From assembly GCF_045037415.1 (NCBI RefSeq), contig NZ_CP173439.1: a stretch of 64,000 bases of DNA; one strand, written 5' to 3'. The DNA is from Escherichia coli. Lineage in GTDB: Bacteria > Pseudomonadota > Gammaproteobacteria > Enterobacterales > Enterobacteriaceae. The notes beneath the pieces were generated by a model, which was not told the DNA's origin, made no database searches, and worked only from the letters and a program-made list of their open reading frames with translations. Of the stretch, positions 1,651 through 44,477 are shown piece by piece. How positions within the stretch are numbered: the first letter of the stretch is position 1; each line of letters opens with the position of its first letter. The translations under genes were made by a program, and so were the position numbers.

Positions 1651-2244
1651 AATGCACCTCATCTTACATACTCTCTGTACACCATTAAGTATACACCAGT
1701 ATTACGCTATAACATGCCTCCGGCAACGGAATATTGTTATCCAGCTATTATTAACACCACCATCAATAACTGACCTGAAAAGTAATCATGACAATAATAA
1801 CCTGCAATGTAGTAACCATGATAAATTACAGGATGACTGTTTTTCTATGATCCGATTTTTATCGGATTCAGGATTTTCCGGAAGTGAATCAGGATCAGTG
1901 AATAAGCGAAGCGATCTTTTCTGCCGCTGATGACTGGCTCGGGAACACGGGAAGAAACACAACATACAGTGTCATGTCAGCGGAGCGGGACACCACATCC
2001 TGTGAAAGCGGACCAGCGGGCGGCAGCGAAGGATCCGCGGATCCGGAACCACCAGAAACCGGATCTGCGTGATGAGAAAAGAGTAGTAGATATGATTTTA
2101 TATAAAAAACATAAAACCATACCAGGCGTGATGTTTGTCATAATATATAAATTCATACCTGATATGATATTTACCAAAGTAGAGATAAATTATTCGCTGT
2201 ATGATTTTACCTATTAATGCACATAATCAAATGGAGCATGCAGG

Positions 2245-2514
2245 ATGGATGAAAAAGTATACTTTCGCCTCAGCTATGAAACGATGACCGGCGATACGGA
2301 AGACTTCATTAACGCATGTATTGAACGGGCAAACCGTGCGGACTGCAACGATACCGATGCGGAGATTGCCCGCGCACGCAGCACCATTGAACTCTGGTAC
2401 TGTCTGGCACTCGCGGGGCGTGCCCCAGACGACGTCGCCGACAGGGATCATCTGCGGTTCACCGAAATGCTCCTGCGCGCCCCGACAGCAGAACAACGCG
2501 CATGTCAGCTGTAA
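2245..2514 (+). CDS. hypothetical protein (high-GC gene)
   Basis: 89-aa ORF divergent from ccdA; noticeably GC-rich relative to neighbours; no recognisable family. Confidence 0.35.
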   Translation: MDEKVYFRLSYETMTGDTEDFINACIERANRADCNDTDAEIARARSTIELWYCLALAGRAPDDVADRDHLRFTEMLLRAPTAEQRACQL

Positions 2515-3098
2515 CCTCCCGTGGGCCGTCGCCGCTGCAACGACGGGTGCTGATTGTGCTGGCTGCCCTTGATGAAAAACGGCCTGGCCCCGTGCTGACT
2601 CGGGACATAGAACGGGTGCTGGAGCGAAGCGGGGAAGCCCCGGTCTACGGACCAAACCTGCGCGCCTCCTGCCGGCGCATGGAAGCATCAGGCTGGCTTC
2701 GCACACTGCGCGCCCCGAATCTGCAGCTGGCTGTCGAACTGACGGACGCCGGCCGGGCCGTGGCACAGCCTCTGCTGCTGGCAGAACAGGACCGCCTCCG
2801 GGCAAAACAGCGCGCGGCAGAAGTCGTCGTACTGCCGCTGGTCCCGGCATCAGGTCTGCCCGCAGACGGCACTTCTGCCACTGATCTGGCGGTGGAGCTG
2901 AACGGCATGACGTATCAGGCCTGCCGTGGGGATTTTGTGGTACGTCTCGACGGCAGCACCTGTCTGCAGTTATGGAACAGAGAAGGCAAGGTGGTACGCC
3001 GGGAGGGCGATCCGCTGGAAGTGGCGCAGTGGCTGCAGGCCTGTCATGATGCCGGAATAAAAGTTCGTGTACAGGTTAATGAAAGTATCACCCCGTAA
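2502..3098 (+). CDS. hypothetical protein, possible winged-helix N-terminus
   Basis: 198-aa ORF overlapping the upstream ORF end; N-terminal LQRRVLIVLAALDE...VLTRDIERVLE resembles a DNA-binding fold; GC-rich. Confidence 0.45.
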   Translation: MSAVTSRGPSPLQRRVLIVLAALDEKRPGPVLTRDIERVLERSGEAPVYGPNLRASCRRMEASGWLRTLRAPNLQLAVELTDAGRAVAQPLLLAEQDRLRAKQRAAEVVVLPLVPASGLPADGTSATDLAVELNGMTYQACRGDFVVRLDGSTCLQLWNREGKVVRREGDPLEVAQWLQACHDAGIKVRVQVNESITP

Positions 3099-3165
3099 AA
3101 ACATGCCTGCACGATTCACACATCATCCCATGGTGGCAGCCGGTTAACTTTCCTGCACCACCAGT
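3075..3165. repeat. Inverted-repeat copy A (~90 bp) bounding the AT-rich lasso island; partner at 9035..9125
   Basis: Reverse complement of 9035..9125 matches this stretch with a few mismatches (shared ...ccccgtaaaaacatgcctgcacg...catcccatggtggcagccggttaactttcctgc...). Confidence 0.6.
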
Positions 3166-3463
3166 GGAAAGAGGCCATGAGCAGTCCGAACAAAAAACCA
3201 CCCGTGATACTTATAATAATGGCCTCACCGGCCACCATTCCTGACGGCCCCCAGTAGATAAACCACATTGCACATCCCCAGGAAATGCCCCATAAGCCCC
3301 CCGTCAGCACCGTGACCTGCCAGAACGGCATAAAGGGTAATGGCGGAAGCCGGATCCCCAGCCGCCAGAGAATACGCAGAAGAGGAGGGGCATAATTGCT
3401 CCGCCACATCTTTTTGCTGTCCATCAGGGCAATGGCCCGGGCTTTTTTCTGCTCAAAAGTCAC
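3116..3463 (-). CDS. hypothetical small membrane protein
   Basis: 115-aa ORF with hydrophobic helices (LWGISWGCAMWFIYW, IIISITGGFLFGLLMASF); its last ~17 codons are duplicated in inverted orientation near 9040..9090. Confidence 0.5.
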   Translation of the reverse strand: MTFEQKKARAIALMDSKKMWRSNYAPPLLRILWRLGIRLPPLPFMPFWQVTVLTGGLWGISWGCAMWFIYWGPSGMVAGEAIIISITGGFLFGLLMASFHWWCRKVNRLPPWDDV

Positions 3464-3573
3464 AGGAGTACCTCCGTTCCATGATGTAAACGTGACACAG
3501 TTTATTGTTATTGATTATTATTATCATTATGTTATCACGCACCAGTACACGATGACAATAAAGGAGAAACCAG

Positions 3574-3921
3574 ATGAAAGCGGATATATCTGTAAAGTAT
3601 TTTCTGAAAAGCCTGATACCAGGTTTCATTATTCTTACAGTTTTTTATCTGGGATGGAAAGATAACCAGGAAAATTCAAGAATGTTTTATGCGTTCATCG
3701 GATGCATTATCAGCTCCATTACTTTTCCTTTTTCAATGAAGATAATACAGAAAATGGTAATAAGGTTTACAGGGAAAGAAGTCTGGCAAAAAGACTTCTT
3801 TACTAATCCAGTTGGCGGAAGCTTAACTGTAATATTTGAATTATTCTGTTTCGTTATATCAGTTCCTGTAGTTGCCATTTACTTAATATTTATATTCTGC
3901 AAAACCCTTTCAGGAAAATGA
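3574..3921 (+). CDS. small polytopic membrane protein, unknown function (first gene of the AT-rich island)
   Basis: 115-aa ORF with about three hydrophobic segments; AT-rich codon usage like the lasso genes downstream. Confidence 0.5.
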   Translation: MKADISVKYFLKSLIPGFIILTVFYLGWKDNQENSRMFYAFIGCIISSITFPFSMKIIQKMVIRFTGKEVWQKDFFTNPVGGSLTVIFELFCFVISVPVVAIYLIFIFCKTLSGK

Positions 3922-4456
3922 AAGGGCATCATTATATGTCAGATACCAATAAGTTTATTGTTCTGCTCAATAAACTTATCATTAACAAGCGCACTCACAG
4001 CAGCCATAATAATTGCAAAACCCAGAATACCTACAAGGGTCCCCGGCATGACGGAAAACGTCCATGCGGTAACAGATGAAGTAGCTCTTCCTGCTGCCAG
4101 TGATTCAAGTTTTACAAAAAATGGACGCCAGTTATCTGTCCAGACAACCTTACCAAACTCAGTGCTCCAGTCAGCAAAATCGTTGCCTTCAGTACACCGT
4201 GTTTTCTCTTCAGCTCTCTTCTGGTTGATGTCGGCAAGCTGGCAACAAAAATTCTCTTTTTACGTCAAGAACGTCATTTGCATGTTTTTACTCATTTGTT
4301 CTGGCACTGACGTTATTTCTCGCCGAATTTACCGCAGATTCAGCAAAGGTGATTTTATTGTAACTGCAACACCTACCAGATGACGGAAAACGGGTGAACG
4401 GATTAGAGTACGATTTTTCCATTTCGTGATCTTCACCTCAGAACCCCACCATTGAT

Positions 4457-4475
4457 GATAAAAATGATTATCATT
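4457..4475 (+). promoter_or_regulatory. Fur-box-like sequence next to the precursor promoter
   Basis: gataaaaatgattatcatt matches about 13 of 19 positions of the Fur consensus GATAATGATAATCATTATC; inner tgattatcatt is one mismatch from tgataatcatt. Confidence 0.3.
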
Positions 4476-4479
4476 CGCA

Positions 4480-4507
4480 TTGACACTTTGAAATAAGTAG
4501 TTATATT
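4480..4507 (+). promoter_or_regulatory. putative sigma-70 promoter of the lasso precursor gene
   Basis: TTGACA (4480..4485), 16-bp spacer, TATATT (4502..4507); about 70 bp upstream of the precursor ATG, which has an AAGGA Shine-Dalgarno. Confidence 0.35.
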
Positions 4508-4576
4508 TTTCATGGTTATTGAGCAATTGGTAACCAATGTAGGTTGTAGGTGTTTCATTTTCATTAAGGAATATGT

Positions 4577-4765
4577 ATGAAAAAACAATCTAAAGAAGTG
4601 AAAACCTCTGGCTCTGAACATCGTGAAATTATGATAGAAATTGATGCCTCTAAATCGACGAACGGTACCGGTGGAGGCTCCATCATTGAAGGGTCATACA
4701 CTGTCTATCGCTGCGATGGCGGAAGTGTCCCCTCGCGTCCTTTTGGCCCCCCATTCTGTCCTTAA
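4577..4765 (+). CDS. putative lasso-peptide precursor (A gene)
   Basis: 62-aa ORF MKKQSKEVKTSGSEHREIMIEIDASKSTNGTGGGSIIEGSYTVYRCDGGSVPSRPFGPPFCP; good SD; immediately upstream of the cyclase; Thr near the leader end, Gly-rich core start, Glu at a ring-forming distance, aromatic and Cys residues in the tail. Confidence 0.6.
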   Translation: MKKQSKEVKTSGSEHREIMIEIDASKSTNGTGGGSIIEGSYTVYRCDGGSVPSRPFGPPFCP

Positions 4766-4892
4766 ATTTAAAGGCTGGTCATGATTGAAATATTCACTTC
4801 TCTCAAACGAAAGCAATGAATCCGATAATACAGGTATATTCGATAAAAAGGACGTCTTTTGTGGCGTCCTTACCTTAAGGAGATTATTACGA

Positions 4893-6281
4893 ATGTCTTT
4901 GGGGGATAAATTTACATCTGGATACCGTGGGATTAATGCCTTCAATAGTGGCGTGATAAAACTTCTTGTTGCCAGAGAAAATGACTGGATTGAAGAAAAA
5001 CTTAGTGCCATTTTAACTCAATCACCTCGTATTGATTTCGAACCACTCATTGCGAGTATAGTTTTTGGGCGTACTGAGGGGAAAACTTCATTATTTAAAA
5101 ATGTGGAATGTATTGTTCCTGGTTGCAGTTTTAAAATTGACCACACGCACAATGGTGCATCCGTAAGTGAATATATTGACTGGAATGCAATTTCATATAA
5201 GACATTACCGCACGACCCGGCAGAGATTCTTTTTCAGTCTGTATCTGAAGTCGTCAACAGAAATCAAGGCGGATACTTTGTTGTGCGCCTGTCTGGTGGC
5301 ATGGACTCTACTGGCATTCTTCTCTCACTAATGGAGGCAGTTGATGTAAGCAGAATTATTGCCATAACTTATCGGTACCTTATGGGGACAAGCAATCAAG
5401 ATGAAGTATCAGCAAGGTATTTATGTAAAATATTTGGAATCAGGCAAATAATAATTGATTTTGAACCTCATTCATTATTTCATAGGCTTCCTTCACCAGT
5501 GCCTCCTGTTCTAAATATGAGAACAATAAATTTTAAAGTTTATGAAGAGGAAAGAAAGCGTATCGGAAGTATCTGTGGAGATAATTATACCCTGTTTGAT
5601 GGGCATGGGGGGGACCATGTATTTTGTGAGAAAATCCCGTTTGGAATAATAAAAGAGTTATTTTTCCATGGGAGTTTGTTAACCTCATGCCGTAAGTTAT
5701 TACAGATAGCTCGCCTTCATGGCATAAATATGAAAGATGTCTTATTAATGCATACTAATAGTATGCATTATCTTATAACTGAAGCACAGTGTTATTTTTC
5801 CAAAGATGTTATAAAAAACCTTCACTATGACAGAAAAACAGTAAGTGAAGAAAGAAAGTCAGCCCTTCAGGAGGCTATTCTTGATAATGGGACGAGCCTG
5901 ACGCTGAGTCTTACGGAAAACGATATATTCCCTTTTACAGACCAGAGGATGATAGGCTATGGTCTGAAACTCAGAGTTGAGGAGTCATTTGATACTACAT
6001 CAAAACGATTTCAATACAGAAAAGCGATTAATGACAGATATAAATTTGTATTTACCAGAAAAGATAAGGGGCATATAACAGGTGCATATCAGTCGGCCCT
6101 TAGTGTTAATAAGGACCGTGTTATTAATCTTCTGCGCCATGGGCAGTTCGCGACACACGGTTTGTTAAACTTGGAGGGGGTAGAGCGAGCAATAGAAACA
6201 AGTTCTCATGGCATCGGTGGAGTCAGTTTTATTCTTATGAAATTAATTGCTGCAGAACTTATCTTTGAAGGATATTTATAA
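4893..6281 (+). CDS. lasso-peptide cyclase (asparagine synthetase B-like, C protein)
   Basis: ORF 4785..6281 with the likely start at ATG 4893 (AAGGAG SD); PP-loop ATP pyrophosphatase motif VVRLSGGMDSTGIL; size like McjC; stop overlaps the next start (TAATG). Confidence 0.75.
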   Translation: MSLGDKFTSGYRGINAFNSGVIKLLVARENDWIEEKLSAILTQSPRIDFEPLIASIVFGRTEGKTSLFKNVECIVPGCSFKIDHTHNGASVSEYIDWNAISYKTLPHDPAEILFQSVSEVVNRNQGGYFVVRLSGGMDSTGILLSLMEAVDVSRIIAITYRYLMGTSNQDEVSARYLCKIFGIRQIIIDFEPHSLFHRLPSPVPPVLNMRTINFKVYEEERKRIGSICGDNYTLFDGHGGDHVFCEKIPFGIIKELFFHGSLLTSCRKLLQIARLHGINMKDVLLMHTNSMHYLITEAQCYFSKDVIKNLHYDRKTVSEERKSALQEAILDNGTSLTLSLTENDIFPFTDQRMIGYGLKLRVEESFDTTSKRFQYRKAINDRYKFVFTRKDKGHITGAYQSALSVNKDRVINLLRHGQFATHGLLNLEGVERAIETSSHGIGGVSFILMKLIAAELIFEGYL

Positions 6282-6964
6282 TGACTTCATTCTACTTTAA
6301 GCCGAATATACATCATGTCAATATTAATAATGAAATAACTATCCTTGATGAGATATCTGATCGTTATATCCTTCTTTCAGAAAAGCAATCAATTCTCTTA
6401 AAAGAGTATATGAGTGATGGTTCTCATAATTATGTCGGTGATACAATGAACCTGGAAGGTATAATTTCTAAGGAGTCGGGTACTCCTTTGGCAAAGAGTA
6501 CTCCGTCTCCTCAGGGGGTTGGTATATTGACCTGGAACAGTTATGTCAGCACTCGGTTGGGTATTGCCAGTTTTTTTTATATCTCTGAAGCAATAATGAG
6601 AATGATTCTTGTCCGAAAACGTCTCCAGTCAAAGGGTTTTCACCATTGCCTTGAGCATTGTCGTTGTGCGCTTAGCCAGAAGAGTTTTCCGTACATTTCC
6701 CTGAAAGATAAATTAATTATTGGGCAGAAGTTGAGCCAGAGTATTAAAATTGCGGCACCGTTTATCCCGGGCAAGGTTAAATGCCTTGAGTTTTCACTTG
6801 TTTTGTTCGACATGTTAGTGTCAAGAAAAATCAGTCCCACATTATTTATTGGATTCCAGCGCTATGATTTTCTTTCTCATGCATGGCTGGAAATTGATAA
6901 TGAAGTGGTTGCAGACCAAGATAACCTGAAAACAAAACTTACACCAATAATTAGAGTGGGATAA
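6281..6964 (+). CDS. lasso-peptide leader peptidase (transglutaminase-like Cys protease, B protein)
   Basis: 227 aa; candidate Cys...His...Asp triad (KVKCLEF ... LSHAWLEIDNE) with spacing like McjB; translationally coupled on both sides. Confidence 0.7.
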   Translation: MTSFYFKPNIHHVNINNEITILDEISDRYILLSEKQSILLKEYMSDGSHNYVGDTMNLEGIISKESGTPLAKSTPSPQGVGILTWNSYVSTRLGIASFFYISEAIMRMILVRKRLQSKGFHHCLEHCRCALSQKSFPYISLKDKLIIGQKLSQSIKIAAPFIPGKVKCLEFSLVLFDMLVSRKISPTLFIGFQRYDFLSHAWLEIDNEVVADQDNLKTKLTPIIRVG

Positions 6965-8688
6965 TGAAAATAAAAAATGTCATTTGTGAATTAAAATCAG
7001 GGGCAAGTGCTTACTCTTCGGCCTACAAGCTCATACGCTCACTGTATCCCGCATTCACATTTTCTTTTATCGGTGTGTCCATTCTCTTTATTCTGGCTTC
7101 GGTTCTTGGTGCATTACTTCCTTATCTGCTCAAAAAGACAGCGGAGGCGTATACTTTCTCTGAAGGGATATTATCTGCATTTTTCCTGATCACAATGACC
7201 TACGCCGTCAGCTGGACAGTGACCGAAGTACTGAAGAATATCAGAGGCATTTTTTCTGCGGGAATTCTGGCACAAGCAGATGCAGCACTAACCAGTAACA
7301 CGATGGAGATTTTACTTTCTATTAGTTTCCGGAAACAAAAGGAATTTGAGCCGGCGGTCCTGGCTGCAAATATTGATCGTGGCGCGCAATCATTCAGTGC
7401 GCTGACATTATCTGTTTTCTGGACACTACTCCCAATTACTGTAGAAATCAGTATGGCTGTTTATTTTCTTTATCAGAGTCTGGGTTTTACTTATTCACTT
7501 ATTTTCTCAATTTCTGTTATAGGTATGATTTTTCTTGCCTTCAGCATAGCGATCTTTAGTCGTCATATCCATACCGATATAATGAATACTCAGAATGGGG
7601 TGTATTCTTATACGATTGAGCGACTTGCCATGCCGTTGGATATCCGAATTAATTCAGCTCATGCAAAAGAAAGAGTTCTTCGCCAGGAAATTCTTAATCA
7701 GTATGTTAATACAATTAAGCTGACCAATAAAAAAATGGGCTTTTTACTGTCACTACAGGCAGTAGCTGTAGGCGTATTGCTTGCTATATCCGTACTGGTT
7801 CTGGTTTTTTTTAAAAAAGCGTCTCATATTGGAACTGGTGACTTTATTATGATTGTGGGCTATATTAGCATGCTAACATTTCAGTTGCGCACAATAGCCG
7901 GAGCCAGCATTGACATTCAACGCCAGATTGTGTACCTGAAAATTCTTCTGGAATATAACAGTATGCATCCCGAAGGGGTTATCCCTGATACAGTAAGCTC
8001 CCGCAGCACTGAGCGTATTTTTGATGTGCGTAATCTTGGAGCTTTTGCTGACGGCAGACTCCTCTTTAATAATGTGAGCTTCAGGATCCATGAAGGTGAA
8101 ATGTTTGCACTTTCTGCGCCTTCAGGTTTTGGTAAATCCACAATTCTGCAATATTTACTCGGTCTTGATACCCCAACTGAGGGCGATATTTATTTCCGAG
8201 GATACCGGATTAACACAGAGTTGAGTGCGTCTATCCTGGAGGACGTTGCTGTTGTGCCTCAAAAAGCCGTTCTGGTGCAGGGAACTATTCGTGATAATAT
8301 TCTGTATGGAACCGATGACATTCTTCCCGATGATGAACTGTTTTGCATCCTGAATTCATTGGGGTTAATTAAAGAGGACTGCGGAGAACATTTCCTTGCT
8401 TTCCTAGACCGGGATATTAATCCTCTGGGTAGTGGTTTGAGTGGTGGAGAGATCCAGCGATTATGCATAGCCCGCGCCCTAGCCCGTAAGAAAAAGATTA
8501 TCGTACTTGATGAACCCACGGCCTCTATTGGCGAAGAACTCGCGATAAAGATCATTACCTATATCCGGCAGCATTGCCCTACCGTTATTATTACAACTCA
8601 TAATCCACGAATTCTGGAGCTCGCCGATCATTTTTTTGATGGTATGTCAAAGTCTTGCGTCATTGCTGGAGAAGGCAGAGACCAATAA
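6964..8688 (+). CDS. ABC exporter (fused permease-ATPase, McjD-like export/immunity, D protein)
   Basis: 574 aa; N-terminal multi-TM domain; Walker A APSGFGKST, signature LSGGEIQR, Walker B IIVLDEPT. Confidence 0.85.
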   Translation: MKIKNVICELKSGASAYSSAYKLIRSLYPAFTFSFIGVSILFILASVLGALLPYLLKKTAEAYTFSEGILSAFFLITMTYAVSWTVTEVLKNIRGIFSAGILAQADAALTSNTMEILLSISFRKQKEFEPAVLAANIDRGAQSFSALTLSVFWTLLPITVEISMAVYFLYQSLGFTYSLIFSISVIGMIFLAFSIAIFSRHIHTDIMNTQNGVYSYTIERLAMPLDIRINSAHAKERVLRQEILNQYVNTIKLTNKKMGFLLSLQAVAVGVLLAISVLVLVFFKKASHIGTGDFIMIVGYISMLTFQLRTIAGASIDIQRQIVYLKILLEYNSMHPEGVIPDTVSSRSTERIFDVRNLGAFADGRLLFNNVSFRIHEGEMFALSAPSGFGKSTILQYLLGLDTPTEGDIYFRGYRINTELSASILEDVAVVPQKAVLVQGTIRDNILYGTDDILPDDELFCILNSLGLIKEDCGEHFLAFLDRDINPLGSGLSGGEIQRLCIARALARKKKIIVLDEPTASIGEELAIKIITYIRQHCPTVIITTHNPRILELADHFFDGMSKSCVIAGEGRDQ

Positions 8689-10297: not shown

Positions 10298-10357
10298 TGT
10301 CAACGCCACGATGTTTGACCGTTATTTGCCATTTTCATGCCCGCTAAGATACTTTCG

Positions 10358-12327
<1,970 letters not shown>

Positions 12328-13153
12328 GTTGATGTCCTTTCTGGTGTGAGAACCTTAAGGAAACAACATGTTGGGTGGAGCGGACAATCCAAATGGTGAA
12401 TTACCGTCTTATATCACTGGCGCTGACACGGCGTAGAACCCCGAGAAAACGAGAGCATGAAAACCCCCAGGACAGTCACTGAATGGGGGACCAGCAGCGG
12501 TAAAATAACCGACATAATTTCATAATGATGCCTCCGTTAGTTATGAAGGTTTGCGGGCTGACTATACTGTTGGTGCCTGAGCAGAACTGAAGGATTGAGC
12601 GTGTTTCTGATGGAGAGTTCCACAGGTATCCACGAGATTGATTATGCCACCAGAAACACGCTCGGATGCGTTTTAACGTTACTTTTACTGGCAGGCAAGG
12701 TTTCTTTGTTTTATTTGTATTCTGACTCTCAGAATGACTCTGTTCGCTCCATAAATATTAAAATTATCAGGTAGAAGAACTCTCTTTTGTACAACTTAAC
12801 TGTGTCTTTATGGAAATGTTGTAAAGGTTCTTTTCTTTAGCTGTATCGTATTTAAATATACTTTTCTGTAAGTGGAATCTTTGCATAAGATAATAAAAAA
12901 CAGCAAATTATATTAATGGTTATGATATCCTGGGAACACCTGATTAACTAATAAGTTATTTTAATAAAAACATCTGCACTGGCAAATAATTGTACCCCCT
13001 TCAATAGGAATATTCTTATTTAATGGCCTTGTTTATATTCTAAAAATAAAACTGAGAAACTCATCATATATTTGGTAAGAAAACGCACCGGTGAACACTA
13101 TCATGAGGCTATACTGCACTTCCTCAAATTGGGATATTATGATGCATTGATTC

Positions 13154-14588: not shown

Positions 14589-15191
14589 TTAAAATGAATA
14601 GCGTACTTTTAAGTTCAGCTCATTATCGATATTGTATTTACCGCCAAATGAACGCTCATAGTCGATGCCAACACGGGTGTTTTTGCCAAGCTCAAATGCA
14701 AGGCGAGCTCCAACAAGTACTCGGCTGTCATGCCCGAATTTGACGGTTGTCTCGTTATAAGCATCACTGAGAATAGTTTGATTATCATTCAATATATCAA
14801 ACTGGTAACTTGTGTCTATCTTTGCTACTATTGACCAGTCCTTACCAGTGAGTTTTCTGGCAAAATCAACACCAGTACGACCGACAAGTACATTATAATC
14901 CTTGTTATCAATAACGGTTTGATTAGCCAGATTTTGTTTACTACCTCCAATCCGTCCATAAGTAAGTTCAAACTGAGACTCAATAAACATTTCATTACTC
15001 AGTCCCCAGCGATATCCTATTTCAGCGTCTGCATAATATGAATTTGTGCTGAAGTTCTCTTTGTCTCTTGGACTTAAATAGCTATAAACGTTTGTTGAAT
15101 GGATGTATTTAGCGATAAAATCAGTATAAAAACCGTTATCAAAGAAGATGGACGTATACCCACCCAGACCATAGCTTTTAGTATCGCCATA
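14589..15191 (-). pseudogene. autotransporter beta-barrel domain, 3' fragment (ends ...LNLKVRYSF)
   Basis: Translation continues upstream of the annotated Met without a start and is cut by the IS911 end at 15192; C-terminal aromatic residue typical of outer-membrane beta-barrels; 5' part found at 43915..44477. Confidence 0.6.
15067..15191. repeat. 125-bp direct repeat copy A (partner 43915..44039), internal to the split autotransporter gene
   Basis: Identical stretch cttggacttaaatagctataaacg...agtatcgccata found at both positions. Confidence 0.75.
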
Positions 15192-15508
15192 TGAAGTGGC
15201 ACACTGAATTTGGCCACCTGAACAGAGGTGATATGCTCACCTCAGAACAACACAGGTGCTCCAATGAAAAAAAGAAATTTCAGCGCAGAGTTTAAACGCG
15301 AATCCGCTCAACTGGTTGTTGACCAGAACTACACGGTGGCAGATGCCGCCAAAGCTATGGATATCGGCCTTTCCACAATGACAAGATGGGTCAAACAACT
15401 GCGTGATGAGCGTCAGGGCAAAACACCAAAAGCCTCTCCGATAACACCAGAACAAATCGAAATACGTGAGCTGAGGAAAAAGCTACAACGCATTGAAATG
15501 GAGAATGA
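15192..15508 (+). mobile_element. IS911 left-end fragment (IS3 family), cut by IS30
   Basis: Begins TGAAGTGGCACACTG; OrfA reads [53 protein letters not shown]...IEMENEIL, then diverges into the IS30 end. Confidence 0.6.
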
Positions 15509-15545
15509 AATATTAATTCAATTGGTCAACGCAACAGTTATGTGA
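15264..15545 (+). pseudogene. IS911 OrfA, C-terminally truncated/altered
   Basis: About 93 OrfA-like residues, then a foreign tail ([11 protein letters not shown]) read from IS30 sequence. Confidence 0.6.
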
Positions 15546-16233
15546 AAACATGGGGTTGCGGAGGTTTTTTGAATGAGACGAACATTTACAGCAGAGGAAA
15601 AAGCCTCTGTTTTTGAACTATGGAAGAACGGAACAGGCTTCAGTGAAATAGCGAATATCCTGGGTTCAAAACCCGGAACGATCTTCACTATGTTAAGGGA
15701 TACTGGCGGCATAAAACCCCATGAGCGTAAGCGGGCTGTAGCTCACCTGACACTGTCTGAGCGCGAGGAGATACGAGCTGGTTTGTCAGCCAACATAAGC
15801 ATTCGTGCGATAGCTACTGCGCTGAATCGCAGTCCTTCGACGATCTCACGTGAAGTTCAGCGTAATCGGGGCAGACGCTATTACAAAGCTGTTGATGCTA
15901 ATAACCGAGCCAACAGAATGGCGAAAAGGCCAAAACCGTGCTTACTGGATCAAAATTTACCATTGCGAAAGCTTGTTCTGGAAAAGCTGGAGATGAAATG
16001 GTCTCCAGAGCAAATATCAGGATGGTTAAGGCGAACAAAACCACGTCAAAAAACGCTGCGAATATCACCTGAGACAATTTATAAAACGCTGTACTTTCGT
16101 AGCCGTGAAGCGCTACACCACCTGAATATACAGCATCTGCGACGGTCGCATAGCCTTCGCCATGGCAGGCGTCATACCCGCAAAGGCGAAAGAGGTACGA
16201 TTAACATAGTGAACGGAACACCAATTCACCGAG
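15509..16233 (+). mobile_element. IS30 fragment (left end and 5' two-thirds of the transposase)
   Basis: ATTCAATTGGTCAACGCAACAGTTATGTG end sequence; transposase matches IS30 InsI for ~220 aa, then diverges after ...NGTPIH. Confidence 0.7.
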
Positions 16234-16283
16234 TAGGCAGCCTGGCGGCTGCGGCTTGTCATGGCCTGAAATTACCGTTATAA
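15573..16283 (+). pseudogene. IS30 transposase, 3'-truncated
   Basis: MRRTFTAEEKASVFELWKNGTGFSEIANILGSKPGTIFTMLRDTGGIKPHERKRAVAHLTLSEREEIRAGLS... matches IS30 transposase N-terminus; tail is junction-derived. Confidence 0.75.
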
Positions 16284-16317
16284 AAACAGACAATATCATT
16301 GTCTTTCAGGTAGTTAT

Positions 16318-16683
16318 ATGTCCCGTTCAGCTAAACCCCGTAAACGAAAACCTGCCCCTCAAAGAAGCAAACTTCCCCGCTATGTCGTGAAGCTTCACGA
16401 CGATGACTTCTTTGACGAAGAAGACGCAGAAGCTCTGCGCTTTGATAATTTTGACGATGCCGTTGAGTGCTGCGCAGACCTGAATATTCCCTTCTTTGTG
16501 GATGCCGGAAACAAAAAGCTGGTCTTCTGGTTTGTACGTGTTGATGACGAAGGGTATCCTGAAATAGCCCGCTGCACGGAGCGGGAGTTTGCGACCATTC
16601 TTGCCGGTATCAGCGCCGGCGGCATGTACTGCCCGGAGTGTGGCACGGTTCACTGGCCGGACGGAGTCCCCCCGCCCTTCTGA
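16318..16683 (+). CDS. IS91 ORF121
   Basis: 121-aa ORF immediately upstream of and overlapping the IS91-family transposase. Confidence 0.65.
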   Translation: MSRSAKPRKRKPAPQRSKLPRYVVKLHDDDFFDEEDAEALRFDNFDDAVECCADLNIPFFVDAGNKKLVFWFVRVDDEGYPEIARCTEREFATILAGISAGGMYCPECGTVHWPDGVPPPF

Positions 16684-17870
16684 TGCTTCCCCGTTTTGCC
16701 GACATTTTTCAGCAGGGAAACCGCTGGCTAAACTGGCTGGAGAAACAACCGGAAGGTTCAGTGCGTCCGGTAGTCATTGAGTCTGTGACAAAAATCATGG
16801 CCTGCGGGACCACGCTGATGGGGTACACACAGTGGTGCTGTTCATCTCCGGACTGCAGCCACATAAAAAAGGTCTGCTTCCGGTGTAAAAGTCGCTCCTG
16901 CCCGCACTGCGGAGTGAAGGCTGGCGCACAGTGGATACAGTATCTGCTGAATCTGGTTCCCGACTGTCCGTGGCAGCATATTGTGTTCACACTTCCCTGC
17001 CAGTACTGGTCCCTGGTGTTCCACAACCGGTGGTTACTGGCAGAGATGAGCCGCATTGCTGCGGATGTGATACAGGAAATCTGCCGCCAGGCAGATGTGG
17101 TGCCGGGAATATTCACGGTCATCCACACATGGGGACGTGACCAGCAGTGGCATCCGCACATTCACCTGTCGACAACGACCGGCGGCGTGACATCAGACCA
17201 CACCTGGAAAAACCTTCATTTTTACGCCCGTAAGGTGATGAGTATGTGGCGTTACCGGATAACGCGGTTACTGTCACGGAAATATCCGGACCTGGTGATA
17301 CCGGATGCGCTGGCAGCAGAAGGAAGCAGTAAACGGGACTGGAATCGCTTCCTGGACAGTCATTACCGGCGGGGCTGGAATGTCAACGTATCCCGGGTGA
17401 TGGATAACGCCACACATGTGGCGGTGTACTTCGGCTCTTACCTGAAAAAACCGCCGGTGCCGATGAGCCGTCTGGAGCACTATGCTGGTCAGGATGAAAT
17501 TGGTCTGCGTTACAACAGTCACCGGACAAAACGGGAAGAATACCTGGTGATGAGTGGTGATGAGTTTATGGAAAGGTTCTCCTGGCATGTGGCGGATAAG
17601 GGGTTCCATATGGTGAGGTACTACGGTTTCCTGAGTCCGGTGAAGCGCCGGTTACTGGAAGATGTTGTGTACGTCATAACGGAGACGGTGAGAAAGACGG
17701 CGATGCAAATCAGGTGGAGAGGGATGTATCAGCGGTTACTGAAGGTTGACCCGCTGAAGTGCATCCTGTGCGGAGGTCAGATGCGTTTTACGGGGCTGAA
17801 GCGGGGCTACCGTCTGACAGAGCTGGTCCTGATGCATGAGCCACTGGCGCAACAGCGGGTGTGCGGCTGA
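16638..17870 (+). CDS. tnpA: IS91-family HUH (Y2) transposase
   Basis: 410 aa; N-terminal Cys-rich zinc-binding region (CFRCKSRSCPHCG), HUH-type motif HPHIHLS, C-terminal CILCGG. Confidence 0.85.
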   Translation: MWHGSLAGRSPPALLMLPRFADIFQQGNRWLNWLEKQPEGSVRPVVIESVTKIMACGTTLMGYTQWCCSSPDCSHIKKVCFRCKSRSCPHCGVKAGAQWIQYLLNLVPDCPWQHIVFTLPCQYWSLVFHNRWLLAEMSRIAADVIQEICRQADVVPGIFTVIHTWGRDQQWHPHIHLSTTTGGVTSDHTWKNLHFYARKVMSMWRYRITRLLSRKYPDLVIPDALAAEGSSKRDWNRFLDSHYRRGWNVNVSRVMDNATHVAVYFGSYLKKPPVPMSRLEHYAGQDEIGLRYNSHRTKREEYLVMSGDEFMERFSWHVADKGFHMVRYYGFLSPVKRRLLEDVVYVITETVRKTAMQIRWRGMYQRLLKVDPLKCILCGGQMRFTGLKRGYRLTELVLMHEPLAQQRVCG

Positions 17871-18063
17871 GAGCCGCATCGGAGAAGTTGCGTCCATTTT
17901 CAGGGGAATGGGGTAAAAAACCATCAGTGATATACAGTATCAATCGATAAGATCCATTTAATTGACGGCGGTGCACTCATGGCACGCAGGCAGTGTTGAA
18001 TAAACATCCGTTTTTGGGTGTTTTTTTAATCTTTTTGGGATTTAAATTCCTATCGATGAACAG

Positions 18064-18330
18064 AGATGAGGACCTTCCATCATGGGCTTCGAGGCGGGCA
18101 CGCCACGCTTTTTCAGCCAGTTCATTATCGAACAGGCTTGCCAGATTCAGTAGCAGCGGGTAACGAAAGGGGGTCCAGTAGGCAACCCTGGGCACTGCAG
18201 GATTCATCCCCTGATCGAAGAACGAAATAATGGCGTGATCCCGTTTAACGACCTGCCAGACATCAAACCGTATCCGGTGCTTCTTCTGCAGGACAAGCAG
18301 CGTATCAACCACCTCATCAAGGCGGTGCAT
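18064..18330 (-). pseudogene. N-terminal fragment of an unknown gene truncated by IS91
   Basis: ORF 17977..18330 runs into IS91 sequence; only ~89 codons lie outside the IS. Confidence 0.3.
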
Positions 18331-18361
18331 GCCAAGCTCTGCGGCGTGCAGACGCTGTACT

Positions 18362-23290: not shown

Positions 23291-23840
23291 TTATTTCCGA
23301 ACCTCGCCCTTGCCTGCGTAACCATCCGTCGCCCCCATCCTGTTTTCAGACTGCGGAAAAAGGCAAGTTTTTATCCCCCCACAGAGATTCAATCATATAT
23401 CGCGTGTTTTGGAAGTGACAGTTCTTATTCCTGAGAATACTGCATGTGCAACACACTCGGCATCCATCGATACCACTTTTATCTCCAATAGGCAGGATAA
23501 AAAACAAGACTGTGAATTAAAGTAATCGGCAAATGAATGAGTTAGAAGATACTGAAAATGAATCAAGGACTAACCCCATAGGGAATGAAAATAATAAAAG
23601 AACATCTTGTTTTTATTTTAATGAATGAGCATGTTCTTTTATATTAATAACAAAACCTATCATTAAACAAAATGATGAATGACAGAGTTTTCTTTAAAAT
23701 AGCTTATATTATCTTACAGTAGCTGACATAGTGCAATATAAATTATCAGCTATGCCATAACGGCTTAGCAGTGTCTAAGCGTAAGAATCAAGACTTCAGT
23801 TACAGTTTACTCACGGTAGAAATATTTAATGGATTTGCCC

Positions 23841-24746
23841 CTATATTTCCAGACACCTGTTATCACTTAACCCATCACTGGCCCACTGCCGCAGATATTC
23901 CCGTGGCGAGCGATAACCCAGCGCACTATGCGGATGCCATTCGTTATAATGCTCGAACGCCTCTGCAAGGTTCTTTGCTGCCGTTAACCCGTCTGGTTTG
24001 GGCATGATACTGATGTAGTCACGCTTTATCGTTTTCACGAAGCTCTCTGCTATTCCGTTACTCTCCGGACTCCGCACTGCCGTGTTCTTCGGTTCAAGTC
24101 CCAACATCCTGGCGAACTGACGTGTTTCATTCGCCCGGTAGCATGAACCATTATCCGTCAGCCACTCCACTGGAGACGCCGGAAGCTCGCTGCCAAAGCG
24201 GCGTTCCACTGCTCCCAGCATGACGTCCTGTACTGTTTCACTGTCGAAGCCACCCGTTGTGACCGCCCAGTGCAGTGCCTCACGGTCACAGCAGTCCAGC
24301 GCGAACGTGACCCGCAGTTTTTCTCCGTTATCACAGCGGAACTCAAACCCGTCAGAGCACCATCGCTGATTACTTTCTTTCACAGCCACTCTGCCGGTAT
24401 GTGCCCGTTTCGATGGCGGTACAGCGGGTTTTCGCTCAAGCAACAGCGCATTCTGGCGCATGATCCGGTAAACACGTTTGGCATTGATCGCAGGCATACC
24501 ATCAAGTTCTGTTTGTCTGCGAAGCAGCGCCCATACCCGACGATAACCATATGTGGGTAGCTCTCCGATAACATGGTGTATACGGCGAAGCACATCCGTA
24601 TCATCCGTGTGACGGCTGCGGCGGCCGTCCTTCCAGTCATCGGCTCGTCTGAGAATGACGTGCAACTGCGCACGCGACACCCGGAGACAACGGCTGACGA
24701 AGCTTACTCCCCATCCCCGGGCAATAAGGGCGCGTGCGCTATCCAC
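23841..24746 (-). CDS. insD: IS2 InsD (OrfB, DDE transposase)
   Basis: 301 aa matching IS2 InsD ([30 protein letters not shown]...). Confidence 0.9.
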
Positions 24747-25069
24747 TTTTTTGCTCGCCCATATTCAACGGCTTCTTTAAGGAGTTCATTTTCCATCGTT
24801 TTTTTGCCGAGCAGACGCTGGAGTTCTTTAATCTGCTTCATGGCGGCAGCAAGTTCAGAGGCAGGAACGACCTGTTCTCCGGCAGCCACAGCAGTAAGAC
24901 TTCCCTCCTGGTATTGCTTACGCCAGAGAAATAGCTGGCTGGCTGCCACACCATGTTGCCGGGCAACAAGGGAGACCGTCATTCCCGGTTCAAAGCTCTG
25001 CTGAACGATAGCGATCTTTTCCTGTGTAGTACGCCGTCTGCGTTTCTCCGGCCCTAAGACATCAATCAT
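24704..25069 (-). CDS. insC: IS2 InsC (OrfA)
   Basis: [41 protein letters not shown]... from the internal Met of ORF 24704..25114. Confidence 0.9.
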
Positions 25070-25350
25070 CTGTTCTCCAATGACTAGTCTAAAAACTAGT
25101 ATTAAGACTATCACTTAAATAAGTGATATTGGTTGTCTGGAGATTCAGGGGGCCAGTCTAAATTCCGTATTGCTGGTTCTTTATCGGTAGAAAAATCAAT
25201 ATCCATAGCATCGGTCGCAGGCGCTGATACATTGCAGAGCGACCGGGTATTAGAGTCGCTATTCACTGGTTATCACTGAACGCTGCGTGATCAGGGTTGC
25301 ATTAATAAAATGATATGTTATAACATACCAATATTAACATATATTTTCGC

Positions 25351-28847: not shown

Positions 28848-28908
28848 GTGTCAACGCCACGATGTTTGACCGTTATTTGCCATTTTCATGCCCGCTAAGA
28901 TACTTTCG

Positions 28909-30878
<1,970 letters not shown>

Positions 30879-32000
30879 GTTGATGTCCTTTCTGGTGTGA
30901 GAACCTTAAGGAAACAACATGTTGGGTGGAGCGGACAATCCAAATGGTGAATTACCGTCTTATATCACTGGCGCTGACAAACAGGGATATTGCGACAATT
31001 CACAGCAATATCGTGCAGGAATACAACACCCTTAAAGGGTATAGCTGGAAATGGCTGGGTGGGGTGTCAGTGGCTTTTCTGGTTATGTTCTGTGTGCTCG
31101 GATGGGGAATGAAAACAATACTCGACAGGAACTACAACGCCACAGCGGCGGTGTATCAGAAAGTTGTGACACTGGAAGATAAACTGGTGGAGAAACCTGT
31201 CACGGGGAAGAGCCGGAAAAACTGACGCGCTTCGCTTGTCCAACGCCTCACGACCCGCGAAAGAATTTCGCGAACCGTTCACTGTTTTTTTCAATATGAT
31301 TCTGTCTGCTTTGGTCGATAAAGCAGACGATAGTATTCCAGCCTTCGTATATATAACGGTACGTGCTCATCAGTAAGAGCTGGCGGTATTGTGTTATCAG
31401 GGGGAAGTTTTTTCAGATACTCACGAAATGCCTGGCTTGATGCCATAAAATCTACAGCTGCATCGATAATATGTGGGATATTTTCATCTAATTTTGTCAT
31501 GATGATTGATCTGATATTATCACGGTTCGTGAATTATAGTATGTCACTATTATTTATGCTTTAGTGAACCAGAAAAAATCCCCCGTTGGTATAGGGGGAT
31601 ATGTAAGGAGAAATAACTTCGCAGGTGTTCTTGTTTGTATTATAACGTGAAAAGAATGCACGCAACTTAATTAATCTGCCGTACTTCCTTTCAGTTTTCA
31701 AGATAAGGTTTATAATAAAACATGGAATGGAAGCAAGCTTTAAGGTTTCAGCTCTAAAATTTTTAATATCTATTAACTAGCTAGTTGTTGTCCTTGTGAG
31801 CATGTTGTATATAAAAGCTAGGATAATATCCTGACCGGAGTATTCATATTCCTTATCCCCTCTGTGTTCTCAGAGGTTTTTTTCTGTATTTAATGATATG
31901 AGCTGGAATGCGATTCCGGCCCCCCCCGTTTACATAATTCTCCCTGACATACGGCACCGGAATCGCATTGATTTTGCATTGCTAATGTCTAACTGTGCTG

Positions 32001-42326: not shown

Positions 42327-42593
42327 TCAGGCCGGCATATACCTCAGCAGACTGATATCCCGCGCGTTTTTCTTCAGCCCTGATACATTCAGCCCCGCAA
42401 TGGCCCGGCGGTATACCATCCGGCCGCCGCACAGCACGCATTCGAACGGGTCACGACTCAGGAACTGTTTCACCATTTGTGCATAGCACACTTTCGCCAC
42501 TGCTTCCGGTTTATCCATCCCCAGAGCACGGTACACCTGCGGCAGCTTCTCTCCACACACCCGGTTGGCAAGGAACCCGAAGTACCTCACCAT
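42327..42593 (-). pseudogene. IS91-family transposase, C-terminal fragment
   Basis: 88 aa (MVRYFGFLANR...FECVLCGGRMV...) parallels the C-terminus of the IS91 TnpA at 16638..17870; no N-terminal part. Confidence 0.6.
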
Positions 42594-42657
42594 CTTAAAA
42601 AACTGAACCGCCCCGGGAATCCTGGAGACTAAACTTCCTGAGAAAGAGGTAAACAGG

Positions 42658-42984
42658 ATGACTAAAAATACTCGTTTTTCCCCCGAAGTCCGTCAACGGG
42701 CAGTCCGTATGGTTCTGGAAAGTCAGGGCGAATATGACTCACAATGGGCGACAATTTGTTCCATTGCCCCAAAGATTGGCTGTACACCGGAGACTCTGCG
42801 TGTCTGGGTACGCCAGCATGAGCGGGATACCGGAGGCGGTGATGGCGGGCTCACCACCGCTGAACGTCAGCGTCTGAAAGAGCTGGAACGTGAAAATCGT
42901 GAACTGCGCCGCAGTAACGATATCCTTCGCCAGGCTTCCGCTTATTTTGCGAAGGCGGAGTTCGACCGCCTCTGGAAAAAGTGA
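42658..42984 (+). CDS. IS629-like OrfA
   Basis: 108 aa, HTH plus leucine-zipper region. Confidence 0.85.
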
Positions 42985-43872
42985 TGCCACTGCTGGATAA
43001 GCTGCGTAAGCTGTACGGGGTCGGACCGGTATGCAGTGAACTACATATTGCCCCGTCAACGTATTACCACTGTCAGCAACAGCGACATCATCCTGATAAA
43101 CGCAGTGCCCGTGCGCAGCGCGATGACTGGCTGAAGAAAGAGATACTGCGCGTATACGATGGGAATCATCAGGTATACGGTGTGCGTAAAGTCTGGCGTC
43201 AGTTGTTACGGGAAGGAATCAGGGTAGCCAGATGTACAGTGGCGCGCCTCATGGCGGTTATGGGACTTGCCGGTGTTCTCCGGGGTAAAAAGGTCCGCAC
43301 TACCGTCAGCCGGAAAGCCGTTGCCGCAGGCGACCGCGTAAACCGTCAGTTTGTGGCAGAACGTCCTGACCAGTTGTGGGTGGCTGATTTTACTTACGTC
43401 AGCACATGGCAGGGGGTCGTCTATGTGGCGTTCATCATTGATGTGTTTGCCGGATACATCGTGGGGTGGCGGGTTCTCATCGTCCATGGAAACGACATTC
43501 GTGCTGGATGCACTGGAGCAGGCGTTATGGGCCCGTCGACCGTCCGGCACGGTCCATCACAGTGATAAAGGTTCTCAGTATGTATCGCTGGCCTACACAC
43601 AGCGGCTTAAGGAAGCCGGATTACTGGCATCAACAGGAAGTACAGGCGACTCGTATGACAACGCGATGGCGGAGAACATCAATGGTCTTTACAAAGCGGA
43701 GGTAATACACCGTAAGAGCTGGAAAAACCGTGCAGAAGTGGAACTGGCCACACTCACGTGGGTGGACTGGTATAACAATCGACGATTGCTGGAAAGGCTG
43801 GGCCATACTCCTCCGGCAGAAGCAGAAAAAGCTTATTATGCTTCCATCGGAAACGATGATCTGGCAGCCTGA
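42981..43872 (+). pseudogene. IS629-like OrfB (DDE transposase) with an internal frameshift
   Basis: Two overlapping ORFs (42981..43565 and 43351..43872) each carry part of the OrfB sequence; frame switch near 43480. Confidence 0.7.
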
Positions 43873-43914
43873 GTTCACAGATAAAACACTCTCCAGGAAA
43901 CCCGGGGCGGTTCA

Positions 43915-44477
43915 CTTGGACTTAAATAGCTATAAACGTTTGTTGAATGGATGTATTTAGCGATAAAATCAGTATAAAAACCGTTATCAAAGAAGATGGA
44001 CGTATACCCACCCAGACCATAGCTTTTAGTATCGCCATAATAGCTGCCGCTCAGCTCTGCATTGGTACTTGTATGGGTAAATATTAAGCCAGTGTATAGC
44101 ATTGCTGATTCAATTCTTATGCCTTTGTCTGCACCGAGTTGCAGGTGGTTGTATGTATTCTGATAACCGTCAGTGCCACTCCCCTGACCGAGCATATAGC
44201 GTCCCCAGACCCCGGCTTCTCCACTGTCGCGAATGTCCCCCATACGTTTATTGAGGTTATTCATTTCTGTAGAGAAAAGGCGGTAGCTGCTATTAGCAAA
44301 ACTGGCCGCCGTACTGACTGCTTTTTTATCAGGCTCTGAGTTAAAGCCAATAATTGCCAGATTTGTACCGTTACCGTTATCACTAGTACCAAGTATCGGT
44401 GTTACGTTACTGAGCCCCGTTTTCTGGCTTATTGCCGAGAACATACTGAAATCGGTACCATCCGGTGCTTCAATTAG
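43915..44477 (-). pseudogene. autotransporter beta-domain, 5'-proximal fragment (continues the 14589..15191 fragment)
   Basis: Translation ...YGDTKSYGLGGYTSIFFDNGFYTDFIAKYIHSTNVYSYLSP then runs into the IS629 end; upstream part cut by IS5; first 125 bp identical to 15067..15191. Confidence 0.55.

Follow-up and report, generated by a model that had tools for sequence, protein, structure and literature searches.

A probable one-sided stack of IS911, IS30 and IS91-family sequences on an F-type Escherichia coli plasmid

The locus described here occupies positions 15192-18063 of a 64,000-nucleotide stretch (the window) of Escherichia coli contig NZ_CP173439.1, in which pieces of three insertion sequences (IS), namely IS911, IS30 and an IS91-family element, adjoin one another. 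As proposed in the initial annotation, all three were present in that order on the plus strand, with near-identical BLAST matches across hundreds of bases, by which chance is ruled out. Four relevant family-model matches were obtained, to the IS3 family, IS30 (partial), the IS91 family and an autotransporter barrel domain. Element identities were taken from the annotations of matching records, both curated and produced by the Prokaryotic Genome Annotation Pipeline (PGAP). A 5.1-kb stretch around the locus was 100% identical in BLAST to the 116-kb plasmid of E. coli CEA106S, and its left 4 kb were identical in the plasmids of LC-1302-2020, VR50, MS 196-1 and others. On an identical plasmid, PGAP places an autotransporter beta-barrel gene on the minus strand first, followed by two partial genes (a 'transposase' and an IS30 transposase), a 366-bp hypothetical gene and an intact IS91-family transposase. 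We are confident that the locus, on an E. coli plasmid of the F type (RepFIB), is a one-sided stack of IS remnants. Insertions alone do not account for its history: besides the three of them, at least three deletions are needed, namely a 16-bp deletion at a joint and two losses on the oriIS side of the IS91-family element. The features are listed in Table 1.

Table 1. Features of the locus, right flanks found next to oriIS and a parallel stack on another plasmid. Coordinates refer to the window except in the last row.
Feature	Position	Strand	Basis or remarks
Autotransporter beta-barrel gene, 3' fragment	14589..15191	-	TIGR01414, E = 4e-15; PGAP on identical plasmids; host DNA of IS911 left end
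IS911 5' fragment (left inverted repeat and orfA codons 1-84, ATG at 15264)	15192..15516	+	NF033516; alignment to K-12
IS911/IS30 joint with 16-bp deletion scar	15510..15523	+	Single 16-bp gap against K-12 IS911A::IS30A
IS30 fragment, nt 7-719 of 1,221 (insI codons 1-219)	15517..16229	+	Alignment to K-12 IS30A; NF033563, partial
Complete IS91-family element, 1,828 bp	16230..18057	+	Ends from six copies; NF033538
terIS end	16230..16260	+	Bottom strand ends 5'-CTCG; subterminal palindrome GCAGCC/GGCTGC at 16237-16252
orf121 (121 aa)	16318..16683	+	Open reading frame; TGA stop overlaps tnpA ATG as TGATG
tnpA, HUH rolling-circle transposase, 395 aa	16683..17870	+	Open frame
oriIS end	18030..18057	+	Subterminal palindrome GGGATTTAAATTCC at 18037-18050
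GAAC target tetranucleotide adjoining oriIS (5'-GTTC on bottom strand)	18058..18061	+	
DUF3800 gene remnant and RepFIB-upstream backbone	18058..18360	-	Joined to IS91 by 2,366-bp deletion
Right flank GAACGGCCTG			Upstream of DUF2971; five records
Right flank GAACAGAGAT			Window and CEA106S only
Right flank GAACTGGGAG			AAA-ATPase fragment; MS 196-1
Right flank GGACAAAATC			traI fragment; SY033
Parallel stack on pDETEC72 (NZ_CP116089.1)	2077-5415		

The left edge of the stack is the joint of the autotransporter gene with IS911, ...ATCGCCATA/TGAAGTGG (joints are marked here by a slash), which is common to the window and to pMRY16-002_1. Base 15192 aligned with base 1 of IS911A as curated in K-12, the left end starting with TGAAGTGG... 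Over its 325 bases the fragment was 97.8-98.5% identical to copies named 'IS3-like element IS911 family transposase' by PGAP, and 90.8% identical to ISEc52-named copies and to the K-12 copy. Only these first 325 bases of IS911 remain, without the frameshift, orfB or the right inverted repeat; with the right end, the far side of the 3-bp target duplication typical of IS911 is absent as well. OrfA had been described as cut at about codon 93. The interruption was found, and the codon needs correction: IS911 ends at orfA codon 84, and 93 is the length of a fused frame that includes nine IS30 codons. No 3' parts of IS911 or IS30 were detected by BLAST in the 64-kb window, and the K-12 IS911::IS30 locus matched it at 15191-16229 only.

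Two chimeric open frames cross the joints. The first (15264-15545, 93 aa) consists of IS911 OrfA residues 1-84 and 9 residues from the IS30 end; the second (15573-16283, 236 aa) consists of IS30 transposase residues 1-219 and 17 residues from IS91. Both are predicted to retain N-terminal DNA-binding parts.

A 125-bp stretch of the autotransporter gene occurs twice in the window with 100% identity, at 15067-15191 and at 43915-44039. The first copy ends at the left end of IS911 (15192). The second begins directly to the right of an IS629/IS1203-type element (42604-43914) and runs into an upstream piece of the autotransporter gene, to about 44492, where it is cut by an IS5-like element. The overlap of the two fragments implies that this gene segment was once present in two copies. 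The IS end at 43914 was considered as the missing right end of IS911 and rejected, as it belongs to the IS629/IS1203-type element.

The IS30 transposase had been described as truncated after about 220 codons, and insI codons 1-219 were indeed present. The fragment showed 2 mismatches in 713 bases against K-12 IS30A. A full element has both inverted repeats and a 383-aa transposase; here the catalytic C-terminal part and the right repeat are gone, as are the first 6 bp of the left repeat, and PGAP annotates the fragment as a pseudogene on identical plasmids. Of the 16 bp missing from the IS911/IS30 joint, AAAAGGCTAC belonged to IS911 and TGTAGA to the left repeat of IS30. The K-12 joints are ...AAAAAGGCTAC/TGTAGATTCAATTGG... 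(left) and ...GAATCTACA/ACCGCGCTC... (right), with a 2-bp duplication, AC, of the length expected for IS30 (PMC9333248). The AC duplication at the joint was found in K-12 and in pMRY16-002_1; the window keeps neither the intact left joint nor the intact right joint. Judged by this duplication, and by IS911 resuming beyond IS30 in K-12 and pMRY16-002_1, IS30 within IS911 is to all appearances a true insertion.

The CP4-6 locus of K-12, IS911A::IS30A (insN / insI1), resembles the window in carrying IS30 at the same orfA position and in the same orientation. It differs in that its IS30 is complete, the AC duplication is present and IS911 continues beyond, whereas the window has lost the 16 bp at the left joint and everything past IS30 nt 719. 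The IS911 copy of K-12 is about 91% identical to the window fragment, the level of ISEc52-named copies. An intact IS911/IS30 joint was seen in K-12 CP4-6, pDETEC72 and pMRY16-002_1. Among 1,051 E. coli records that span the joint (window 15417-15616), about 17 had the deleted form, and the rest (about 1,000) had the intact 216-bp form, which was found on chromosomes as well as plasmids. S19-651 and SCU-306 were tried as intermediates having the 16-bp deletion together with a complete IS30, and were rejected. They are later derivatives with IS2, Tn3 or IS26 added, and the 16-bp deletion may therefore be older or younger than the IS91 insertion.

IS30 occupies the identical orfA position of IS911 in 1,024 of 5,426 complete E. 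coli genomes, about one fifth. Two IS911 variants, 9% apart, have this position in common. Between K-12 and the window, IS911 diverges by 9% and IS30 hardly at all, which makes a hot spot likelier than a single old event. The site is probably a hot spot, or belongs to an old composite that spread.

The ends of the IS91-family element were defined from six independent copies with differing flanks. The left end CGAGTAGGCAG... and the right end ...TTCCTATCGAT were constant in all six, the flanks next to oriIS were GAAC, CAAG and once GGAC, and there was no target duplication. According to the published description, IS91 has 5'-CTCG at terIS and 5'-GTTC or 5'-CTTG next to oriIS (PMC13181058). The bottom strand of the window, 5'-GTTC/oriIS...terIS-CTCG, matches this description exactly (PMC13181058). 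The end of the stack had been placed at 18063. The true oriIS end of the IS91-family element is 18057, 6 bp earlier, and 18058-18061 is the GAAC target. The match to NF033538 scored 291 bits against a cut-off of 125. TnpA contains the HUH motif (HPHIH, residue 157) and the paired tyrosines (YFGSY, residue 249) of the family, and is annotated as an intact protein on an identical plasmid (WP_147675953.1). On its sequence, the IS91-family element is the sole complete element of the three, in agreement with the initial annotation.

Of the three names given there, IS911 and IS30 are right, and 'IS91' is approximate. Like IS91 (X17114), the element has terIS, an orf121 of 121 aa whose stop overlaps the start of tnpA, and oriIS, with the same ends, a GAAC/CAAG target, no target duplication, and the HUH and YxxxY motifs. 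Unlike it, the DNA is 90.0% identical over 1,837 bases to a copy named 'IS91-like element IS91' by PGAP, which stands in for X17114; against the same copy 371 of 395 TnpA residues (94%) and 114 of 121 Orf121 residues were identical. The closest matches, at 99% identity, were remnants on pO157-type plasmids. For isoforms, PMC13181058 uses a limit of 95%, taken here as DNA identity over the whole element. The value against the PGAP-named copy falls below it, so that by this rule the element is an IS91-family relative with the orf121 and tnpA layout rather than an isoform of IS91. Elsewhere in the window, an 88-aa open reading frame at 42327-42593 (minus strand), just left of the IS629-type element, is similar to the C-terminus of another IS91-family transposase. 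This remnant is distinct from the element at 16230-18057 and does not represent a further copy of it.

The site at which this element entered IS30 is precise. Intact IS30 reads ...ATTCAC/GAACGTTCC at the break, which lies exactly 5' of GAAC. The presence of GAAC directly after the break, together with the precise terIS end, indicates that the IS91-family element entered IS30 at a normal target. An earlier state was found in pMRY16-002_1, in which the IS911::IS30 joint is intact and IS30 has no IS91 in it. The IS911 fragment of this plasmid is 100% identical to that of the window and is followed by the IS911 3' part; its IS30 is full-length and has itself been struck by an IS2-like element. This state supports insertion in the order IS911, IS30, IS91. 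The same order had been proposed from the window alone, and it is borne out by the position of IS30 in IS911, shared with K-12 CP4-6 and about 1,000 other records, by GAAC at the IS30 break and by pMRY16-002_1. The accompanying view of a clear chronology of three insertions proved too simple, given the 16-bp joint deletion, the disappearance of the 3' parts of IS30 and IS911, and a variable right joint on unrelated backbone.

The right side of the element was examined by comparison with related plasmids. In the window, oriIS is followed by GAAC and then AGAGATGAGG..., which is not IS30 and belongs to the backbone upstream of RepFIB repB. The empty site of this right joint is uninterrupted in pSFO157, ...CCTCACT/GAACAGAGATG. 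A single IS30/IS91 left joint was found with four right flanks, GAACGGCC, GAACAGAG, GAACTGGG and GGACAAAA, which begin with GAAC in three cases and with GGAC in one. On either side of the locus the plasmid of FDAARGOS_1249 and the window are collinear, with 2,366 bp extra in the plasmid between oriIS and the flank seen in the window, both ends of the extra segment being T/GAAC. Within the segment lie DUF2971, an Abi-family gene and two incomplete genes, one of them hypothetical and the other DUF3800, represented by its 3' part. A second difference of this plasmid is an extra IS3-family insertion inside the IS30 fragment. Direct observation thus covers the sequences at the junctions, the end points of the deletions, and the ancestral and sister states. 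Plasmids of enterotoxigenic E. coli O169:H41 were considered as sharing the right joint of the window and were rejected, their IS91 copies lying at other GAAC/CAAG sites. pMRY16-002_1 has another IS91-family copy, with oriIS joined to an IS21 fragment at a point that matches window position 12000.

A history in six steps can be proposed. IS911 would have been resident in the autotransporter gene, having entered it either before or after gaining IS30 (step 1), and IS30 would have inserted into IS911 orfA at the site that about a thousand E. coli records share (step 2). A 16-bp deletion across the IS911/IS30 joint would have removed the tip of the IS30 left repeat (step 3), before or after the IS91-family rolling-circle element entered IS30 directly 5' of GAAC (step 4). 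Remodelling on the oriIS side would then have eliminated the 3' parts of IS30 and IS911 and joined oriIS to a backbone GAAC upstream of DUF2971 (step 5), a state carried by FDAARGOS_1249, LC-1302-2020, VR50 and others. Loss of another 2,366 bp, as far as the next GAAC in use, would have given the joint of the window beside the RepFIB replicon (step 6).

Steps 5 and 6 were most likely deletions from one-ended (read-through) rolling-circle transposition, an enzymatic route that we infer. Replication would start from oriIS, fail to stop at terIS, proceed round the plasmid and end at a GTTC tetramer, and the product would close as a smaller circle that retains the replicon. IS801, a member of the IS91 family, makes deletions in Pseudomonas syringae plasmids that extend from ori801 to a GAAC or CAAG, with an adjacent replicon maintaining the product (PMC6354349). 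The constant terIS flank and the variable oriIS flanks starting with the target tetramer match this pattern. As in the IS801 deletions of P. syringae pv. savastanoi (Bardaji et al. 2019, PMC6354349), the ori border is fixed, the other border is GAAC or CAAG, and a replication gene adjoins. Those deletions were seen experimentally, with an element whose ter end was damaged; the ones proposed here are derived from a comparison of natural E. coli plasmids, and terIS and orf121 are intact. The shared left joint with its four oriIS flanks may document, in natural plasmids, a series of ori-anchored deletions or fusions by an active IS91-family element with intact orf121 and terIS, a proposal for which we find the case evenly balanced.

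A parallel exists in a ColV-type cluster next to tsh/hbp, for example on pDETEC72. As in the window, the same IS911 variant has IS30 at the same site, and an IS91-family element lies just 5' of GAAC with its oriIS joined to unrelated DNA (CAAGGTCACG). It differs in that IS30 is complete, the IS911/IS30 joint is intact, and the IS91-family element (91% identical) lies in IS911, 26 bp after IS30. The pDETEC72-type arrangement was found in about 150 records, against about 16 for that of the window.

Several points weigh against one-ended transposition. Neither of the parental joints expected (IS91 oriIS with IS30 3' sequence; pSFO157 backbone ...CCTCACT with IS91 terIS) was found in the 5,426 genomes, so that no intermediate of the first oriIS-side event has survived to give its size. 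The backbone of pMRY16-002_1 is arranged differently past the stack, and this plasmid is not a predecessor of step 5; for the same reason it was rejected as a basis for sizing the first loss. Intramolecular transposition of IS91 is said to have given simple second-site insertions in the 1999 work of Bernales et al. Orf121, reported to lower read-through at terIS (PMC13181058), is intact in the window element. Finally, sequence alone is unable to separate one-ended transposition from second-site insertion followed by recombination.

The latter explanation is a serious possibility, although on balance we doubt it. A second IS91 copy would have inserted in the same orientation at a further GAAC on the same or another plasmid, and RecA recombination between the 1.8-kb copies would then have removed the intervening DNA, or fused and resolved two replicons, leaving a hybrid copy that has the old flanking DNA at terIS and the new one at oriIS. 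Identical joints are predicted: on the left the former flank is kept, and on the right a new one begins with the target tetramer. Several copies of the IS91-family element do occur on related plasmids, and in pPsv48A most IS801-linked deletions were put down to recombination between copies (PMC6354349). The simple intramolecular insertions of IS91 that Bernales et al. reportedly found in 1999 also speak for this route. However, no second copy of the element was found in the 64-kb window, and the parental left joint at the second site (backbone/terIS) was absent from the 5,426 genomes. Nor was there a mosaic of differences, the 1,694 IS91 bases shared by the window and FDAARGOS_1249 being 100% identical.

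Loss of the 2,366 bp by slippage or recombination between two 5-bp TGAAC repeats, with IS91 playing no role, is very improbable. TGAAC does stand at both ends as a 5-bp microhomology. However, one end falls exactly at the oriIS boundary and the repeat includes the target tetramer of the element itself, and in three other plasmid lineages oriIS is joined to other DNA starting with GAAC or GGAC, a pattern that random microhomology would not give. A simple closed nest of three successive insertions and nothing else is refuted, for although the stacking order of the left halves is as expected and both inner joints are true insertion sites, IS91 is followed by RepFIB-upstream backbone instead of IS30 and IS911, the K-12 IS911::IS30 locus matches no further than 16229, 16 bp are missing from the IS911/IS30 joint, and one left joint has four right flanks.

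Other features were noted in the window. A lasso-peptide cluster at about 4577-8688, recognized by collinearity (99.97% identity) with the FDAARGOS_1249 plasmid, comprises a small precursor-sized open reading frame, genes of the asparagine-synthase-like and B2 types, and an ABC exporter, and has the look of a microcin J25-type locus. An IS21-type element is present in two copies (10298-12432 and 28848-30979), and an IS2-like element lies at 23830-25160.

All parts and mechanisms met here are already known, the history is an ordinary one for mobile elements, and nothing in it alters existing knowledge of these elements. Exact element boundaries are now set for annotation of the region, and the locus illustrates that stacks of truncated IS are not readable as a plain chain of insertions. 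The constant terIS flank with variable oriIS flanks provides a marker for tracing related plasmids. A live IS91-family element probably removed neighbouring DNA, including the Abi/DUF2971/DUF3800 gene group. If the four oriIS flanks are indeed a record of repeated ori-anchored events, the element would trim DNA, this gene group included, beside a RepFIB replicon, and the IS801 result, so far experimental only in Pseudomonas, would be extended to enterobacterial F-type plasmids.

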